Of a DNA stretch of 64,000 nucleotides, positions 4,174 to 46,776 are shown piece by piece. Position 1 is the first letter of the stretch; every line of letters begins with the position of its first letter. The notes beneath the pieces were generated by a model that was not told where the DNA came from, ran no database searches, and saw only the letters and a list, made by a program, of their open reading frames with translations. This stretch comes from Polyangia bacterium (GTDB lineage Bacteria; Myxococcota_A; Polyangia; Nannocystales; Nannocystaceae). Location: assembly GCA_030424595.1 (NCBI GenBank), contig JAUHWG010000011.1, forward strand, positions 129,130-193,129. Direction: 5' to 3'. The translations under genes and the position numbers were made by a program.

Positions 4174-4518
4174 TCAGGCCTCCGCGGGATCCGCAGGCGC
4201 GGTCGGCCGGACGCTCGCCTGTGCCGGCTCCACCAGGTGGCGCCTGTGCGCGGCGAAGGTCGCCTCTAGCCGTGTGAGCCGCTCCTCCAGGGCTGTTCTC
4301 AGCCGATCGTGGAGATCCTGCTCGCGGAGGAGCTGGTCTGCGAGCTGGATCGCGACGAGCGCGAGGGCGCGGGTCCTGTTCCCGGCGTGGTGGTCACCCA
4401 GGAGCTCGGCGACCAGGGCGTCGACCAGCTCCGCGAGCTGGTGGACATACTCCGGCCCTTCGTCGCTGCGGATCGCCAGGCGCTGGCCGGCGACCTCGAC
4501 CTCGATCGCGCGCTTCAC
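4174..4518 (-). CDS. zapA: Cell division protein ZapA
   Basis: 114 aa. The N-terminus VEVAGQRLAIRSDEGPEYVHQLAELVD fits the ZapA fold pattern. It overlaps prfA by 4 nt. Confidence 0.7.
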   Translation of the reverse strand: MKRAIEVEVAGQRLAIRSDEGPEYVHQLAELVDALVAELLGDHHAGNRTRALALVAIQLADQLLREQDLHDRLRTALEERLTRLEATFAAHRRHLVEPAQASVRPTAPADPAEA

Positions 4519-5591
4519 TGACCCTGGGCTTCGGCGAGCCGGTCCGCCTCATCGCTCGCCCGGAGGGCGTCGATGACGTCGTCGATGCTGCCGTTCATGA
4601 AGTCGTTCAAGCCGTGGCGGGTCAGGTTGATCCGGTGATCGCTGATCCGGTCCTGAGGATAGTTGTAGGTCCGGATCTTCTCCGAGCGGTCGCCGGTGCC
4701 GATCTGTCCCCGGCGATGGGCGGCGCGCTCGGTCTGGTACTTCTGGATCTCGAGGTCGAGGAGCCGCGAGCGCAGGAGGCGGAAGGCGATCTCGCGGTTT
4801 TTCACCTGCGACTTCTCCTGCCGGCAGTGGACCGCGGTGCCGGTCGGGATGTGGGTGATCCTGACCGCGGAGTCGGTGGTGTTGACGTGCTGTCCGCCGG
4901 CGCCGCTGGCCCGCATCGTCTGGATCTCGAGGTCCTTGGGGTTGATCTCGATGTCGATCTCTTCGGCCTCGGGCATCACCGCGACGGTCGCCGTCGAGGT
5001 GTGGATGCGACCCTGAGACTCGGTCGCCGGCACCCGCTGGACCCGGTGGACGCCGCTCTCGAACTTGAGCATGGCGTAGACGTTCTTGCCCCGGATCGTC
5101 CCCGTGATCTCCCGATAGCCGCCGGCGCCGGCCGGGCTGGCGCTCAGGAGCTCGATCGTCCAGCCATGGGTCTCGGCGAAGCGGCTGTACATGCGCCAGA
5201 GATCGGCGGCGAAGAGGGCCGCCTCCTCGCCGCCCGCGCCAGCGCGGATCTCGAGGATGACGTCCTTGTTGTCGTTGGGATCCTTGGGGAGGAGGAGGCG
5301 CTCGATCGCTCGATTGCGCTCCTCGACCACCGTCCGCAGGCGATCGACGTCGGCCTCCGCGAGCTCCCGCATGTCGGGGTCCAAGAGCAGACCCTCGGCG
5401 TCGGCGAGCTCCGCCATCAGCTCGACGATCTCGCGATAGGCCTCGGCGACGGGGGTCATCTCGGCGTGCTCTCGCGAGAGCTGGAGAAAGCGGTCCTTGT
5501 CGGCGGCGATCTCCTGATCGCAGAGCATCTCGGCGAGCTCTTCGTGGCGCTCGCAGATGTTCTCGAGCTTGGCGCGGAGGCTTGAGTTCAT
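4515..5591 (-). CDS. prfA: Peptide chain release factor 1
   Basis: GGQ motif (SGAGGQHVNTTDSAVRITH). The RF1-specific sequence KFESGVHRVQRVPATESQGRIHTS (PxT-type) is present. Confidence 0.93.
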   Translation of the reverse strand: MNSSLRAKLENICERHEELAEMLCDQEIAADKDRFLQLSREHAEMTPVAEAYREIVELMAELADAEGLLLDPDMRELAEADVDRLRTVVEERNRAIERLLLPKDPNDNKDVILEIRAGAGGEEAALFAADLWRMYSRFAETHGWTIELLSASPAGAGGYREITGTIRGKNVYAMLKFESGVHRVQRVPATESQGRIHTSTATVAVMPEAEEIDIEINPKDLEIQTMRASGAGGQHVNTTDSAVRITHIPTGTAVHCRQEKSQVKNREIAFRLLRSRLLDLEIQKYQTERAAHRRGQIGTGDRSEKIRTYNYPQDRISDHRINLTRHGLNDFMNGSIDDVIDALRASDEADRLAEAQGQ

Positions 5592-31440: not shown

Positions 31441-31624
31441 GCGGCAGCGCTCGCTGCGATGAGCTCGACCGGCGAAGGTCGGGGTCGACGGAAGAGGCGG
31501 CTCGGGCGAATGCCCCTGCCGCCTCTGCTTTGGTTCTTGTGGTTCTTGTCCTCTCGTCGCGATGAGTCGCGGCCGTGGCTGGACGAGATCGATCCCAGGC
31601 GGCACGAGCGAAGCTCAGGCCGGA

Positions 31625-31745
31625 CAGGGGCAGAACAGGGGCAGAACAGGGGCAGAACAGGGCCGGAACAGGGCCGGAACAGGGCCGGAGCAGGGCCGGA
31701 ACAGGGCCGGAGCAGGGCCAGAACAGGGTCAGATCGGCGGAGTCT
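31625..31745. repeat. Minisatellite: ~10 units of 12 bp (cagggGcagaac / cagggccggaac / cagggccggagc)
   Basis: Read directly from the sequence. It is intergenic, between convergent genes. The ORFs across it are repeat translations. Confidence 0.85.
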
Positions 31746-31855
31746 CGCCGTAGAGACCGGTTCCTCCGTCGGCACGAGCGGACGCCCGTCCTCCGAGGAT
31801 CGGCTCCTAGCTTCGGCTTCGGCTCCGACTTCGACTCTTTGTTCTTCTTCGAGGC

Positions 31856-35286: not shown

Positions 35287-35626
35287 CCTTCTGGGCCGGT
35301 GTCAGAGCCCGCAATCACCCCTCATTTGGGTGCCTAGGCCCCCGAATTGACGCGCTTTGCGGACCGAGTTGGGGTCTCGCAGCTCCCCCCGAGACTACCA
35401 AAGCGAAGAACTCAACCAATGGGGGGCCGACCACGTGTGGACTTTCACCCTTTGCTCCTAGGCAAGCGATTGAAAGTGCGGTACTCCGCCGCTGTCTTGA
35501 TGGCGATCGCATCTTGGGGTCGTCAGACCCTGACGCCCGATCGCTTGTCACCCATCAACAGTGGTGGCATAGTCTCATCATCGTCGCCGTCCTGGCCGCG
35601 ATTGGTAACTCGCTGAAAAGAGTCAT

Positions 35627-36085
35627 ATGACTGAGATTGCCCAGCTCTTTGAGTCTGCGCTCCAGCAGAACCGTGCAAGCCTCCTGCGGAAGGCTGCGCT
35701 CAATACAGTCGCTAGAATGCCAGCGACGATGACTCTCCGTGAGCTTCTCCAGAGTGAAGCCGGATCATCGATCCGAGAATTGACCATAGGTGAGCTTAGC
35801 GAAGCGCTCAAGGCGGTTGTCCGCCCCGCTCGCCGACTTCGCTTGAGCGAGAAGGCGCCGGTGGTCGTCGCGGCCCCAAACCCTGAGGAGGGCCGTGAGG
35901 CCCAGGTCTATCGCCAGATCCTCGAGGCCGTCTCCGAGGGCCCCTTGACGATCGGACAGCTCGCCAAACAGGTCGTGATCGACACGACCGAGCTGCGCGG
36001 CTACCTGACCTGGATGAAGAAGAACGGCCGCATCGCCAGCTCTGGACGGGCTCGCGCGACCCGCTACTCCTTGGTATCGGCCTAG
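35627..36085 (+). CDS. Hypothetical protein with a C-terminal winged-helix-like segment; atypical low-GC3 codon usage
   Basis: ATG preceded by a low-GC leader. Codons such as act/att/ttt/tct/aat/aca are frequent here and rare elsewhere in the window. C-terminal GPLTIGQLAKQVVIDTTELRGYLTWMKKNGRI is wHTH-like. Confidence 0.45.
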   Translation: MTEIAQLFESALQQNRASLLRKAALNTVARMPATMTLRELLQSEAGSSIRELTIGELSEALKAVVRPARRLRLSEKAPVVVAAPNPEEGREAQVYRQILEAVSEGPLTIGQLAKQVVIDTTELRGYLTWMKKNGRIASSGRARATRYSLVSA

Positions 36086-42980: not shown

Positions 42981-43004
42981 GCCTCGGGCGGACTCTTTCG
43001 GAGA

Positions 43005-43027
43005 AAGGCGCCCAGGACGGGCGCCTT
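43005..43027 (+). terminator. Perfect 9-bp GC-rich hairpin (aaggcgccc-aggac-gggcgcctt) downstream of the small lipoprotein gene
   Basis: Read directly from the sequence. There is no U-tract, which is common in high-GC genomes. Confidence 0.4.
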
Positions 43028-43154
43028 CACGGGTCCAGGGCGCTCGCCTTGGCCGAGCTCATGGACGATGCGACTTCCCCTCCGCCACCCTCCTCTCGGG
43101 CGTGATGCGCCCCTCCATCGTTGCGCTCACCTAGAGGCGCTCGCGGAGGCGGCG

Positions 43155-43994
43155 ATGGGCCTCGCCCTGCGGCCGGCGGCGACCGTCTTCACCGCGCGGC
43201 GCTCGCGGGGACGCTACGGCAACGCCCTCCAGTGGCACCTCGGCCTCGATCCCCACGACGGCCTGCCGCAGCTCGATTGGGAGGACCGGATCGAGCTGAA
43301 GATCATCACCGTGTGGCGCCGCGGCGGGAGGGTGGTCTGCGACAAGCTCAAGGTCTGCGATCTCGCCCACGACCCGTGGCACAAGCTCTCGAACGTTCTC
43401 TGGGTCTTCGTCGATCGCCTGACGCGAGTCGTCATCGGCCATCGTTTCACGCGTCTGGCCGGGGCTTCCCGGGAATTGCTCGAGACGAGCTGGCTCCTCG
43501 ATCCCCACTTCGACAGCCCCTCGCTCTTCGTCGAGGCGCGCGAGCAGGATGATCGCCAGGCGCCGGCCTACTACCTGTCGGCGCACTACCTTCGGGAGTC
43601 GGGGATCGTCCCCTCAGAGCTACCTGGGGTCTTCGCCTTTGATCCCAAGTGGATGCGAGAAGCACGGAGTAGCCATCGCGGTGCCGAGCCGCTCTTCACC
43701 CTCTGGAGGGGTCAGGCGGAGTCGGATCTCTGCTGTCCCCGCTGCGGAGGGCGGATCCGGACCGATCTCGGGACGGTCCGCGAGGTGGGCAGCGCACCCG
43801 CGGTGCACGCCCTCGCAGGGGGGACGGTGTGTGCACTTCGCGCTCACTGCGTGATCGATGTTGGGCGCCTGCCGATAGGTGAGCACCATCCTGGACGGCG
43901 CGAGCTCGAGGAGGCCCTCGAGGATCGGTGTCCACCGGAGCGCGTTTGGCGTCTGACCGATCGGGTGATGGAGCCCGAGGACCACCTGCACTAG
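43155..43994 (+). CDS. MutH/Sau3AI-family endonuclease-like protein with a C-terminal Cys4 zinc-ribbon region
   Basis: RGRYGNALQWHLGLDPHDGLPQLDWEDRIELKIITVW aligns to E. coli MutH [36 protein letters not shown] (D-x6-7-E-x-K). HKLSNVLWVFVD aligns to MutH HKLKRVLWIPVE. CCPRCGGRIR...CALRAHC is the zinc ribbon. GGAGG lies 6 nt upstream of the ATG at 43155. Confidence 0.7.
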   Translation: MGLALRPAATVFTARRSRGRYGNALQWHLGLDPHDGLPQLDWEDRIELKIITVWRRGGRVVCDKLKVCDLAHDPWHKLSNVLWVFVDRLTRVVIGHRFTRLAGASRELLETSWLLDPHFDSPSLFVEAREQDDRQAPAYYLSAHYLRESGIVPSELPGVFAFDPKWMREARSSHRGAEPLFTLWRGQAESDLCCPRCGGRIRTDLGTVREVGSAPAVHALAGGTVCALRAHCVIDVGRLPIGEHHPGRRELEEALEDRCPPERVWRLTDRVMEPEDHLH

Positions 43995-44148
43995 CAGGTC
44001 TCGCGCCGCGATCGTCGGTCCGGGTCCTGGGCCTCAGGTCTCTGGGGCTGTAGCGCAGGTCTTGGCGGATCCGAGAGGGCCGAGGGCAAGAGCGCGTGGG
44101 CTCTGGCCACGGGCTAGAGATCCCGTTCGGTCTCGGTCGCCTGGTATG

Positions 44149-44200
44149 GCAGACCGGTGCAGACCGGTGCAGACCGGTGCAGACCGGTGCAGACCGGTCA
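44149..44200. repeat. Minisatellite: 5 tandem units of the 10 bp gcagaccggt
   Basis: Read directly from the sequence. It is ~150 nt downstream of the MutH-like gene. Confidence 0.85.
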
Positions 44201-44299
44201 TGGTCCCCGGTCGGCTCGTTCGCGAGCTGCGAAGCCGAGACTCCATCAACCAAAACGAGAACCCAGGACAACTGACCAAGTCGTCCTGGGTCCCCCCCC

Positions 44300-44760
44300 A
44301 GTTCTAAGTTGTTTCAGCACCGACCATGCGTAGGCGCTATCTGCGGAAAAACTATGTTCAAGCTAGCGGAAGACCAAGTTCAGGCGAAGGAGTAAGGGAA
44401 AGCCAAGATCTAGTCGTTAAGGAGGAAACGAACCGAAGTGAGGAGCGGGGGCGCTCAAGCGGTAAGCGAGCGCCGAAAGATAAGGGCAAGTCAGAAGGTA
44501 CGAAGGCGAGGCTAGGATAGAAAAGGTGCCAAGCTAGCGAACGGAAGTCTTGCAGATAGGGCCCGTCATTGACGGACAGTCCCGGTAGATGCAGACGCAG
44601 TGCCATCTTGTCAAAGTGTTGAAATTATTGAAGATGGTGTCCTGGCATTGTCCGACGTGTCCTACCCTGTGCCCTAGGTATGACTCCCATGTCATGATCC
44701 CCGCCCTGTCACGGTCGGCGCCCATGACATCGATGTCATAGCTGCGGCATCGAGGTCAGA
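44300..44760. other. Purine-rich (AG-rich) low-GC non-coding island upstream of argC
   Basis: Runs such as aaggagtaagggaaagccaag, gttaaggaggaaacgaaccgaagtgaggag, gaaagataagggcaagtcagaaggtacgaaggcgaggctaggatagaaaagg. The only ORF (44326..44520) has a GC3 pattern foreign to this genome. An AT-rich stretch tcaaagtgttgaaattattgaagatgg lies at 44611-44637. Confidence 0.6.
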
Positions 44761-44830
44761 CGGGCGCGAACGGTCGTTGAGAGCGGTCGGCTGGCGGAGC
44801 GTCGAGTGGTACAAGCCGGCTGAGGACGAC

Positions 44831-45931
44831 ATGACGATCGCATTGACACGGAAGGCAAGTGAGGCTCGTTTTCGCGCGGCTCTGATCGGCGGTACCGGCT
44901 ACGGCGGTGCCGAGCTGATCCGACTGCTCATCACCCACCCCGAGGTGGAACTCGCGCGCGTGACCAGCATCGACCGAGTGGGCGAGCCGCTGGAGGCGGT
45001 TCATCGGACCCTCCCCACGACCGGGCTGACCTACGAGAAGATGTCGGCGAGAGATGCGGCGGCCGGTGTTGATGTCGTCTTCCTCGCTCTTCCGCACAAG
45101 GTCAGCGCGACGATGGCGGCCGAGCTTCAGGGGGTCGAGGCTCGGATCATCGACCTCTCTGGGGACTTCCGGCTCCGCGACGCCGAGGCCTACGCCAAGT
45201 TCTACGGCGGTGAGCATCCCCATCCTGAGGAGCTCGGGAGCTTCGTCTACGGACTGCCAGAGCTCAACCGAGCGGCGATCCGGGGGGCTCGAAGGGTCGC
45301 GTCTCCGGGCTGTTTCGCGACGACGATCGCCCTCGGCCTGCTGCCGCTCGCCAAGGGCGGCCTCCTCCGCGGCGCGATCCACACGGTCGCCTGTACGGGC
45401 TCCTCCGGGTCGGGGGCCTACGCGAGCGCGGGAACCCATCACCCCACCCGCGCCGGCAACCTCAAGATCTACAAACCCCTCGTCCATCAGCACACGCCGG
45501 AGATCGAGCAGACCCTCGGGGATGCGTGCGTCCTCGGCGGTCATGAGGCGAGCTTCTCGCTCTCGTTCGTCCCTGTCTCCGCGCCGCTCGTCCGGGGGAT
45601 CCTCGCGAACTCCTTCGTCGAGGTCCCAGCCGAGGTCGACGATGCTCAGATCGATTCCCTCTTCCGTGATTTCTACCGCGACTCGCCTGTCGTCCGACTG
45701 CGCACCGGGGCTGAGAATGCTGAGGTCGTGGCCGTCAAGGGGACGGTTTGGGGCGATGTCTCCTGGACCCTCGGCGAGGTGGACTCGACGAGCGGGCGCC
45801 GCCAGCTCCTGGTCACGACCGCCGTCGACAACCTGGTGAAGGGGGGCGCCGGTCAGGCCGTGCAGTCGATGAACCTGATGCTCGGCCTCGACGAGTCGAC
45901 GGGCGTCACCCTCCCGGGGGTCTGGCCGTGA
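44831..45931 (+). CDS. argC: N-acetyl-gamma-glutamyl-phosphate reductase
   Basis: ALIGGTGYGGAELIRLL NAD-binding motif. Catalytic Cys context SPGCFATTIAL. ATG at 44831. Confidence 0.93.
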   Translation: MTIALTRKASEARFRAALIGGTGYGGAELIRLLITHPEVELARVTSIDRVGEPLEAVHRTLPTTGLTYEKMSARDAAAGVDVVFLALPHKVSATMAAELQGVEARIIDLSGDFRLRDAEAYAKFYGGEHPHPEELGSFVYGLPELNRAAIRGARRVASPGCFATTIALGLLPLAKGGLLRGAIHTVACTGSSGSGAYASAGTHHPTRAGNLKIYKPLVHQHTPEIEQTLGDACVLGGHEASFSLSFVPVSAPLVRGILANSFVEVPAEVDDAQIDSLFRDFYRDSPVVRLRTGAENAEVVAVKGTVWGDVSWTLGEVDSTSGRRQLLVTTAVDNLVKGGAGQAVQSMNLMLGLDESTGVTLPGVWP

Positions 45932-46776
45932 GCCCGCGGGCGGTCCTCAAGATCGGCGGCGATCTGCTCTCAAGGCCGGAGGCGCTCTCGGAGGTGCTCC
46001 GCGACGTCGCCTCGCTGGTCGCTGAGGGGTGGCGCTTCGTCCTCTGTCACGGCGGTGGGCCCCAGGCCAGCGATCTTCAGGCGCGCCTCGGCATGCTGAC
46101 GCGCAAGGTCGGCGGCCGGAGGATCACCGACACGGCCACGCTTCAGGTGATGAAGCAGGTGCTCGCCGGGGAGGTGAACGTCGATCTCGTCGCGACCGCG
46201 CTGGCGGCGGGGATCGACGCGATCGGCCTCTCAGGGGTCAGCGGAGGGCTCGTGAAGGCACGACGGCGGCCTCCGATCGTCGTCAGCGGAGGGGGCGACG
46301 CGCCGATCGACTTCGGCTATGTCGGCGATGTCGTGGGCATCCGCACGGAGCTCATCGAGCATCTTTGGGCGGGCGGTTGGACGCCTGTGCTCAGCACGCT
46401 GGGGGTCGACACTGAGGCTGAGGGGGCCTCTGCGCCTGTCTTTAATATCAACGCGGATACGGTCTCGGCGGCGATCGCTGGCGCTCTGAAGGCCGATCAC
46501 CTCTTCGCGATGACCAACGTGCCTGGGGTTCTCCGCGACAAGGACGACCTGACCACTCGGATCCCGCGACTGACCTCGAGCGAGGCGAAGCGGGCGATCG
46601 CCGACGGGATCATCGTCGGCGGGATGATCCCGAAGATCGAGGAGGCGCTGCGCAACCTGGCGCGAGGTATCGGCGCGATACACATCCTCGGCGTCGGTGC
46701 GGGGGTGCTCGCGGAGGAGGCGGCGACGCCGGGCTCGCGCGGAACGGTGCTCGTCGCGGGTTCGGCGAGCGCGTAG
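45928..46776 (+). CDS. argB: Acetylglutamate kinase
   Basis: AVLKIGGDLL...FVLCHGGGPQ...NINADTVSAAIAGAL amino-acid-kinase motifs. The GTG start overlaps the argC stop (GTGA). Confidence 0.9.
   Translation: MSPRAVLKIGGDLLSRPEALSEVLRDVASLVAEGWRFVLCHGGGPQASDLQARLGMLTRKVGGRRITDTATLQVMKQVLAGEVNVDLVATALAAGIDAIGLSGVSGGLVKARRRPPIVVSGGGDAPIDFGYVGDVVGIRTELIEHLWAGGWTPVLSTLGVDTEAEGASAPVFNINADTVSAAIAGALKADHLFAMTNVPGVLRDKDDLTTRIPRLTSSEAKRAIADGIIVGGMIPKIEEALRNLARGIGAIHILGVGAGVLAEEAATPGSRGTVLVAGSASA

Follow-up and report, generated by a model that had tools for sequence, protein, structure and literature searches.

A predicted sigma-54-dependent non-coding RNA gene, conserved divergently from argC in Nannocystaceae

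Results

A low-GC island upstream of argC

We analysed a stretch of 64,000 nucleotides of DNA from a Polyangia bacterium (hereafter the window), which has an overall GC content of 0.687. The locus of interest lies between an ORF at 43068-43994 and argC (44831..45931, plus strand). The latter was identified by TIGR01850 (335 bits) and Pfam, and is followed by argB and then by an M20 hydrolase of the ArgE/DapE type. The upstream ORF was initially called a nuclease; it has no match in Pfam, NCBIfam, PADLOC or PDB sequences, and we refer to it here as nuclease-like.

The initial annotation described the top strand of 44300-44760 as A/G-rich and low in GC, ending about 70 nt before argC and holding an AT-rich string, and all of these points stand. 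The region is the GC and purine extreme of the 64 kb. Among all 200-nt segments, the lowest GC content (0.515, ~4.6 SD under the mean) is found at 44241 and the highest purine fraction (0.715, ~4.6 SD over the mean of 0.511, SD 0.044) at 44361, and the stretch 44340-44560 has a GC content of 0.525 and a purine fraction of 0.697. The region stops 71 nt short of the argC ATG at 44831, and the AT-rich string is located exactly at 44611-44637. The several AAGGAGG motifs that were also claimed come down to one exact copy, at 44419. We regard these Shine-Dalgarno (SD)-like motifs as incidental; the anti-SD sequence CCUCC is depleted in the RNA family described below (7 observed against 14.7 expected). 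The tract in the window is not a pure R-Y mirror repeat, and the flanks of the island are without repeats or mobile-element features.

Synteny and coding potential

Alignment to relatives, one of the checks proposed at the outset, showed that the island is conserved among Nannocystaceae-type loci. The non-coding stretch at 44252-44696 is 72% identical to that of L001, the best locus (83% ArgC identity) in an ArgC genome scan that assigns the window to a Nannocystaceae-type myxobacterium, and ~85 nt around a hairpin at 44257-44295 are common to five more genomes, Nannocystis pusilla among them. Of the 12 related genomes that we profiled, 11 have a low-GC stretch with a purine fraction of at least 0.63-0.77 ahead of argC. 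A covariance model built on its 3' module (R1) gave a single hit per locus in 12 genome loci and 16 metagenome loci, in every case adjoining argC. The metagenome loci stem from a scan with a 3'-module pattern that returned 24 loci, 16 of them true by R1 and 8 chance matches; every one of the 16 is flanked by the nuclease-like ORF and argC. No extra copies or paralogues were found with R1 in the window and 57 loci, each element being a single copy that is always at argC. Synteny extends over 28 Nannocystaceae-type loci, in all of which the element diverges from argC, itself no part of the RNA gene. It was not found in more distant Myxococcota (L007, L010, L014 and L016-L028). One locus, L003, is cut by a contig end, with the promoter described below still visible. 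The nuclease-like ORF co-occurs with the element, yet it is inverted in L004, which leaves argC as the constant neighbour.

Such an island could be a remnant of foreign DNA, one of the options initially offered, or a small protein gene with odd codon usage. Its GC content is indeed low for the genome, and a 64-aa plus-strand ORF is present at 44326-44520, with a 69-aa counterpart in the closest relative, L093 (85% DNA identity). This ORF survives only in L093; in L001 a stop follows the first 11 codons, and most loci lack a start codon for it. No ORF on either strand is conserved across the homologues, several predicted RNAs are without any AUG, and the small ORFs of the region have no Pfam match. 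Indels of any length have left the body of the element anywhere between 91 and 385 nt long. Synteny in the 28 loci, kept across ArgC identities of ~66-95%, and the lack of flanking repeats or mobile-element features also speak against foreign DNA. By these comparisons, the element is inherited vertically with conserved synteny and is not foreign, and the RNA it would specify is non-coding. We give next to no credence to the foreign-DNA or small-protein explanation. The suggested Rfam scan matched no family, either at E<=10 on 43000-46000 or at the gathering threshold in the whole window, and ARAGORN found nothing.

A terminator that favours the minus strand

A conserved hairpin of the region belongs to a predicted intrinsic terminator at 44245..44300 on the minus strand, which consists of a G-run (44292-44299), a stem of 17-19 bp (44257-44295) with the loop UUGGUCA, and then UUCUCGUUUUGGUU. 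A terminator scan matched the minus strand only, with 17 pairs followed by GUUUUGGUUG. The GC-rich hairpin and U-run of a Rho-independent terminator are both present, the U-run being interrupted by a spacer of 4-5 nt. Read from the plus strand, the hairpin contains A-C mismatches and is followed by a C-run rather than a U-run. In the window it has an MFE of -38.8 kcal/mol as minus-strand RNA versus -21.3 kcal/mol as plus-strand RNA. It is more stable as minus-strand RNA in 12 of 12 loci, over which the MFE sums to -430.9 versus -316.2 kcal/mol, a difference of 115 kcal/mol. The hairpin is favoured as minus-strand RNA because many of its G-U pairs would be A-C mismatches on the plus strand; the lower-stem pairs are mostly G-U, and about a quarter of all cells are G-U in 23 sequences.

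Covariation was tested on the 3' module, since alignments of the variable body are not meaningful. In an independent MAFFT alignment, 86.8% of the stem cells are paired and 8 pairs have changed on both sides. In a second alignment, of the 23 sequences to R1 and thus fitted to this model, pairing reaches 94.3% of cells, with compensatory changes in 10 of the 19 stem pairs. This R1-fitted alignment holds 41 compensatory cells against 16.2 +/- 3.4 in shuffles, and none of 500 shuffles reaches 41. Slid controls for the stem are 36-60% paired. Folding of the whole region is not exceptional, with z ~-1.7 on both strands.

A sigma-54-type promoter with enhancer-like sites

Upstream of this terminator on the same strand, at 44590..44605, lies a sigma-54-type -24/-12 element, TGGCACTGCGTCTGCA (TGGCAC-N5-CTGCA). 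The match is exact, and no other site in the 64-kb window matches at <=1 mismatch. It carries the -24 GG and -12 GC at the exact spacing of the consensus TGGCAC-N5-TTGCW, its GG and TGC are invariant columns in an alignment of 12 loci (A2), and 28 of 28 loci each have one such element in the homologous position. A start site is predicted at ~44579-44583, 12 nt downstream of the -12 GC. For the geometry of the upstream sites we used the plus-strand T of the promoter TGCA as an anchor, with the predicted start 11 nt below it.

Three further conserved sites lie upstream of the -24/-12 element. The AT-rich box (44611..44637, minus strand) spans ~-32 to -58, about -45. Its conserved minus-strand core reads AAT-N-ATTTCA (plus-strand TGAAAT at 44620-44625), the columns A..ATTTCA are nearly invariant in alignment A2, and in 18 of 23 loci 31-32 bp separate the GAAAT core from the anchor. 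We tentatively regard the box as a candidate IHF-type bend site, since it agrees only in part with the IHF consensus WATCARNNNNTTR (WATCARXXXXTTR, PMC3045617), reading TTCAATAATTTC in the window. Beyond the box are two enhancer-like palindromes, the proximal UAS1 (TATGACTCCCATGTCATG, 44679..44696, centre ~-108) and the distal UAS2 (CATGACATCGATGTCATA, 44723..44740, centre ~-152), the latter a perfect 16-bp palindrome. Exact matches to ATGAC-N6-GTCAT occur at 44680 and 44724 and nowhere else in the window; the pattern across loci is GACAT-N2-4-ATGTC. UAS1 is conserved in 23 of 23 loci, at +88 to +92 from the anchor in 18, at +78/79 in four and at +101 in one, so that its offset shifts between loci by one helical turn (~11 bp) less or more. 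UAS2 follows 43-45 bp, or four helical turns, past UAS1 in 20 of the 23 loci by regular expression and is visible in the alignment in the other three. The argC start lies at no fixed distance, its spacing ranging between 155 and 278 bp across loci. Because their geometry is fixed to the sigma-54 promoter and the argC distance is variable, the palindromes and the AT-rich box belong to the former and not to argC. The predicted sites are placed and conserved as expected for sites of a bacterial enhancer-binding protein (bEBP) ~80-150 bp upstream on a fixed helix face, and taken together with the candidate IHF-type bend and the -24/-12 promoter they give the classical layout. No bEBP gene (GAFTGA, ESELFGH and GTGKE signatures) is present in the 64-kb window or within 5 kb of 11 related loci.

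These data allow the strand to be assigned. The initial annotation had considered the purine-rich top strand as a long leader of the arg operon or a plus-strand non-coding RNA, with 44611-44637 as an ArgR operator. This has some appeal, as the element adjoins argC in 28 of 28 loci, the AT-rich box is conserved, and the 5+4+5 layout of the palindromes superficially resembles an ARG box (TGACA-N4-TGTCA versus the ARG-box consensus TGAAT-N4-ATTCA). However, the RNA would be transcribed away from argC, the boxes are helically phased to the minus-strand promoter at a variable argC distance, and neither strand of 43800-45000 yielded a sigma-70-like promoter. Close to its start, argC has a conserved GGTACA/GCTACAC box, which points to a proximal promoter of its own. 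We also found none of the marks of a leader, riboswitch or attenuator of the arg operon: the region has no plus-strand promoter-like site and no match to a riboswitch or leader family in Rfam, the plus-strand ORF is not conserved, and the structure favours the minus strand, its plus-strand version having A-C mismatches followed by a C-run. Nor is 44611-44637 an ARG-box pair. An ArgR operator would be marked by two 18-bp AT-rich palindromes that overlap or adjoin the arg promoter at a constant position; this site is locked to the sigma-54 promoter instead. We consider the top-strand and ArgR explanation extremely unlikely. The transcript is assigned to the pyrimidine-rich minus strand because of the minus-strand sigma-54 promoter, the G-U-dependent terminator stem, the T-run on the minus strand only and the absence of a sigma-70-like promoter. 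The purine-rich plus-strand island would then be the complement of a minus-strand RNA gene. Of the three options initially put forward for the island, a non-coding and perhaps protein-sponging RNA is the best supported, on the minus strand and not on the purine-rich top strand to which it had been attributed.

A predicted repetitive, pyrimidine-rich RNA

Promoter and terminator together delimit a predicted non-coding RNA gene of ~336 nt at 44245..44580 on the minus strand. Both ends are inferred, the 3' end being placed at the T-rich tract past the terminator. Homologous RNAs in the 27 other loci are predicted to be 221-515 nt long. From 5' to 3', the RNA is made up of a 5' hairpin, a variable body, a small GC hairpin, a GGUCGGUGC block, the G-run and the terminator. 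The 5'-proximal hairpin (GUCCGUCAAUGACGGGC, 44561..44577, minus strand) is weakly indicated by per-sequence MFE folds, which place hairpins at the 5' end of most homologues, with no alignable consensus across them. The GGUCGGUGC block (44317..44325, minus strand) is predicted to be single-stranded and is a candidate seed or protein contact. Its columns are invariant or nearly so in alignments A1 and A3, it is unique in the window, and it is the most conserved non-structural stretch of the RNA.

The body (44340..44545, minus strand) is pyrimidine-rich, with A 0.13, C 0.35, G 0.18 and U 0.34. Throughout the family it is A-poor (6-18% A) and about two-thirds C+U. Within it we observed a recurrent short motif with the core U-R-R-Y-Y-U. 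The core occurs 190 times in 22 non-redundant RNAs versus 35.6 +/- 5.6 times in dinucleotide-preserving shuffles, an excess of about five times, and individual RNAs hold 3-30 copies. In the window there are seven, at 44349, 44360, 44371, 44400, 44488, 44509 and 44531, of which CUUGGCUU, CUUGGUCU, UCUGACUU, CCUAGCCU and GCUAGCUU are examples. Extended by its flanks, the motif reads C-Y-U-R-R-C-Y-U as a consensus, most often in the form CUUGGCUU. A near-copy lies within the invariant terminator loop (UUGGUC). In L011, a 9-10-nt unit is repeated in tandem ~25 times; an expansion of this kind would be expected if selection maintains the repeat. Motif nucleotides are predicted to be no more accessible than their surroundings, with 0.45 unpaired versus 0.49 in the rest of the body.

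We know of no familiar binding site that matches C-Y-U-R-R-C-Y-U, and several candidate readings of the repeats were rejected. GGA is rare in 21 RNAs (0-4 per body), which speaks against a CsrA sponge, and an anti-SD mimic is at odds with the depletion of CCUCC. The TTGGC part of the repeat could be seen as a mimic of the -24 element, making the array a sink for sigma-54; about half of the copies, however, read UGAC or UAGC and are without GG.

The array could also work as DNA, either as a AAGCCAAG-like direct array of protein sites or as unusual polypurine-polypyrimidine DNA, and in this way modulate argC or a neighbour. The repeats are direct, their period in L011 (9-10 bp) is near the helical repeat, and the strong strand asymmetry would permit triplex DNA. 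Outside L011 the spacing of the motif is irregular, from 9 to >30 nt, and the tract is not a pure R-Y mirror repeat. The array also sits exactly between the conserved promoter and the covarying G-U terminator, and being bounded in this manner it is packaged as a transcript. We judge an element acting at the DNA level to be very unlikely.

Discussion

Our analysis points to a conserved and undescribed non-coding RNA gene of ~335 nt, predicted on the minus strand upstream of argC and read from a sigma-54 promoter. In this gene, its strand and its promoter, as deduced from sequence comparison, we have high confidence. What the RNA does is a separate matter, on which we draw from known systems with a similar promoter logic.

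A close parallel is CrcZ/CrcY of Pseudomonas. The crcZ gene is transcribed by RpoN with CbrB and IHF, and its RNA sequesters Hfq, a global regulator, by means of a short single-stranded motif present several times (PMC8395346). Our RNA shows the same promoter logic, with a candidate IHF-type site, and shares a length of several hundred nucleotides and many short repeats. It differs in that CrcZ motifs are A-rich (of the AANAANAA type), whereas this RNA contains 6-18% A and carries C-Y-U-R-R-C-Y-U; since it is A-poor, it is without the A-rich Hfq-binding motifs of CrcZ. In addition, crcZ adjoins the gene of its activator, cbrB, while no bEBP gene is near the present locus. The host lineage here is the Nannocystaceae of the Myxococcota, and there is no homology in sequence or structure: the CrcZ covariance model was unmatched and the A-rich CA motifs were missing.

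A second parallel is found in glmY/glmZ, which have a sigma-54 promoter, GlrR sites of the form TGTCN10GACA and IHF sites (PMC3045617). Here too a sigma-54 promoter is combined with upstream palindromes placed as activator sites, which contain TGTC/GACA, and with a candidate IHF-type site, and GlmY acts as a decoy. The palindromes of our locus (GACAT-N2-4-ATGTC), however, have the opposite half-site orientation and a much shorter spacer. The RNAs are not similar, GlmY/GlmZ have no comparable repeats, and the genomic context is another one; neither the covariance model nor GlrR sites gave a match.

The CsrB/RsmX-Y-Z RNAs are multivalent sponges in which the number of repeats varies between species and repeats also occur in hairpin loops, as they do here. 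Their transcription depends on GacA/UvrY and sigma-70. The GGA motifs that define them are nearly absent from our RNA (0-4 per body); there is no Rfam match, and the many GGA/ANGGA motifs of a CsrB/RsmZ-type CsrA sponge are not present.

NrsZ of Pseudomonas is RpoN- and NtrC-dependent, modular, repetitive and linked to nitrogen (PMC8395346). The constant pairing of our RNA with argC hints at a similar link to nitrogen or arginine. NrsZ, however, is built of repeated stem-loop modules, is processed and base-pairs on rhlA, and we found no homology to it. Among myxobacteria themselves, Pxr is the one sRNA that has been studied well; for its gene, proposals include a sigma-54 promoter and an NtrC-like neighbour. 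The Pxr RNA of the Cystobacterineae has ~100 nt and three stem-loops; it differs from ours in size, composition and context, and the Rfam Pxr family was not matched. It is a regulatory sRNA of this phylum (PMC11928866), and in the literature that we searched on Nannocystis or myxobacterial sigma-54 sRNAs, only Pxr and unrelated systems came up, with no description of the present RNA. As the covariance models were unmatched and the defining motifs tested were not found, we place the RNA outside the CrcZ, GlmY/Z and NrsZ families. It would work like these sigma-54/bEBP/IHF sRNAs and be a member of none; in our assessment it forms an undescribed RNA family of this lineage alone, distinguished by its new repeat motif.

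Taken together, the explanation that we favour, and regard as probable, is a sigma-54/bEBP-driven non-coding RNA that acts in trans as a multivalent decoy. A signal-activated bEBP would bind the two palindromes, and the AT-rich box would bend the DNA between enhancer and promoter. The bEBP would then open the sigma-54 closed complex, upon which the RNA would be made and terminated at the hairpin. The RNA would probably exert its control on other genes through a bound partner. Acting in trans, it might titrate an RNA-binding regulator or a complementary RNA, in the way that CrcZ does with Hfq and CsrB with CsrA. We favour a multivalent decoy because CrcZ, CsrB and other titrating RNAs are likewise built of many copies of a short motif whose number drifts between species. 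The accessibility result does nothing to support a sponge with its sites exposed as single strands, and we propose the decoy step, taken by itself, only tentatively, as plausible and somewhat short of an even chance.

The main rival on mechanism keeps the same gene and promoter and makes the RNA a base-pairing sRNA, in which GGUCGGUGC, and possibly the C/U-rich repeats, would pair with target mRNAs and alter their translation or stability, with arginine and nitrogen genes as possible targets. The most conserved non-structural stretch of the RNA is usually where a seed is found, and GGUCGGUGC is that stretch, situated between the small GC hairpin and the terminator. Sigma-54-dependent pairing sRNAs are known, NrsZ being an example (PMC8395346), and the accessibility data do not favour protein sites on display. 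A single seed, on the other hand, leaves the 3-30 degenerate copies of the motif and the ~25 tandem copies in L011 unexplained, and the anti-SD content is depleted. The complement of the block, GCACCGACC, occurs nowhere else in the 64-kb window, a test of very little power, and by inspection there is no conserved complementarity to the argC leader. We consider base pairing as the main mode of action rather unlikely.

That argC is the divergent neighbour throughout is a contextual hint, and no more, of a connection with arginine or nitrogen status, and because this pairing is invariable, the activating signal may be one of nitrogen, arginine or starvation. A bolder proposal can be made from here, which we regard as speculative and on balance doubtful. 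The RNA would be the sponge part of a new global post-transcriptional switch in the Nannocystaceae, controlled by a bEBP that responds to nitrogen, arginine or starvation, and its repeats would titrate an RNA-binding regulator whose motif is unlike those of CsrA, Hfq (ARN)/Crc and ProQ.

For the scanning of genomes, the locus teaches that unusual composition on one strand can be the reflection of a gene encoded on the other. The Nannocystis group has very large genomes and many natural products. To our knowledge, almost nothing is known of RNA regulators in the Myxococcota beyond Pxr, and nothing in the Nannocystis group. The locus described here offers a cleanly delimited and testable RNA family, in which the sigma-54 enhancer architecture is complete and conserved and the repeat motif differs from those of known sponge RNAs. 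It may provide a handle on which myxobacterial enhancer-binding protein controls an sRNA and what signal that protein senses, as well as on the protein or RNA that reads C-Y-U-R-R-C-Y-U and on any co-regulation of arginine biosynthesis with the RNA.

A conserved open reading frame next to the RNA

In every complete locus, the predicted minus-strand RNA (~44580 to ~44245) that diverges from argC (plus strand, start 44831) is accompanied by a nuclease-like open reading frame, which in the window lies on the plus strand at 43068-43994 and encodes 308 amino acids. The label "nuclease" comes from the initial annotation; the ORF had zero matches in Pfam, NCBIfam, PADLOC and the PDB sequences. The two are usually convergent, and in this arrangement 10-260 nt separate the ORF stop codon from the RNA terminator. 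In L004, a related argC locus, the ORF has the opposite orientation: it shares the strand of the RNA and follows it downstream. Between the ORF and the terminator hairpin (44245-44300), the window also carries five perfect tandem copies of GCAGACCGGT (44149-44198); these copies are missing from the closest relative, L093, where the spacer is unrelated sequence.

Additional conserved elements upstream of argC

A further conserved element, TGGCA(A/T), occurs at 44641-44648, between the AT-rich box (44611-44637) and the upstream palindrome UAS1 (44679-44696). It is palindromic in two related loci, L008 (4733-4750; TTGCCAAATTGGCAA) and L009 (about 4755-4770; TGCCAATTTGGCA). Our model of a sigma-54 promoter with an IHF-type bend site and upstream palindromes does not account for this element, which may be the site of a second regulator. 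Closer to argC, most loci share a conserved box (GGTACAAG / GCTACAC / TGGTGTAC), which sits at 44808-44815 in the window and at homologous positions in the others, 15-50 nt before the start of argC. Its spacing to the second palindrome, UAS2 (44723-44740), is not constant and ranges between about 68 and 90 bp. This box is a candidate core promoter element of argC.

Coding potential and repeat expansion in the purine-rich island

Opposite the RNA, a plus-strand ORF spans 44326-44520. L093 (85% identical) retains it as a 69-aa ORF from 2302 onward, with a differing middle part, and its counterpart in L001 is truncated. The scarcity of stop codons in purine-rich sequence most likely explains why L093 retains the ORF. 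Elsewhere in the window, the second-lowest GC stretch (about 35300-35800, around 35600) covers intergenic sequence together with the beginning of an ORF at 35627. In purine content, the 200-nt windows at 31561-31581 rank second (0.67-0.68; region about 31560-31780). Neither region had an Rfam match in a whole-window scan at the gathering threshold. In L011, from a Nannocystaceae MAG, the RNA body is expanded at 4400-4620, where a 9-10-nt unit (plus strand AAGTCAGGT / AAGTCAGGCT; CCUGACUUA in the RNA) is repeated in tandem about 25 times. This tandem expansion shows that slippage is how the motif array of the RNA body evolves.
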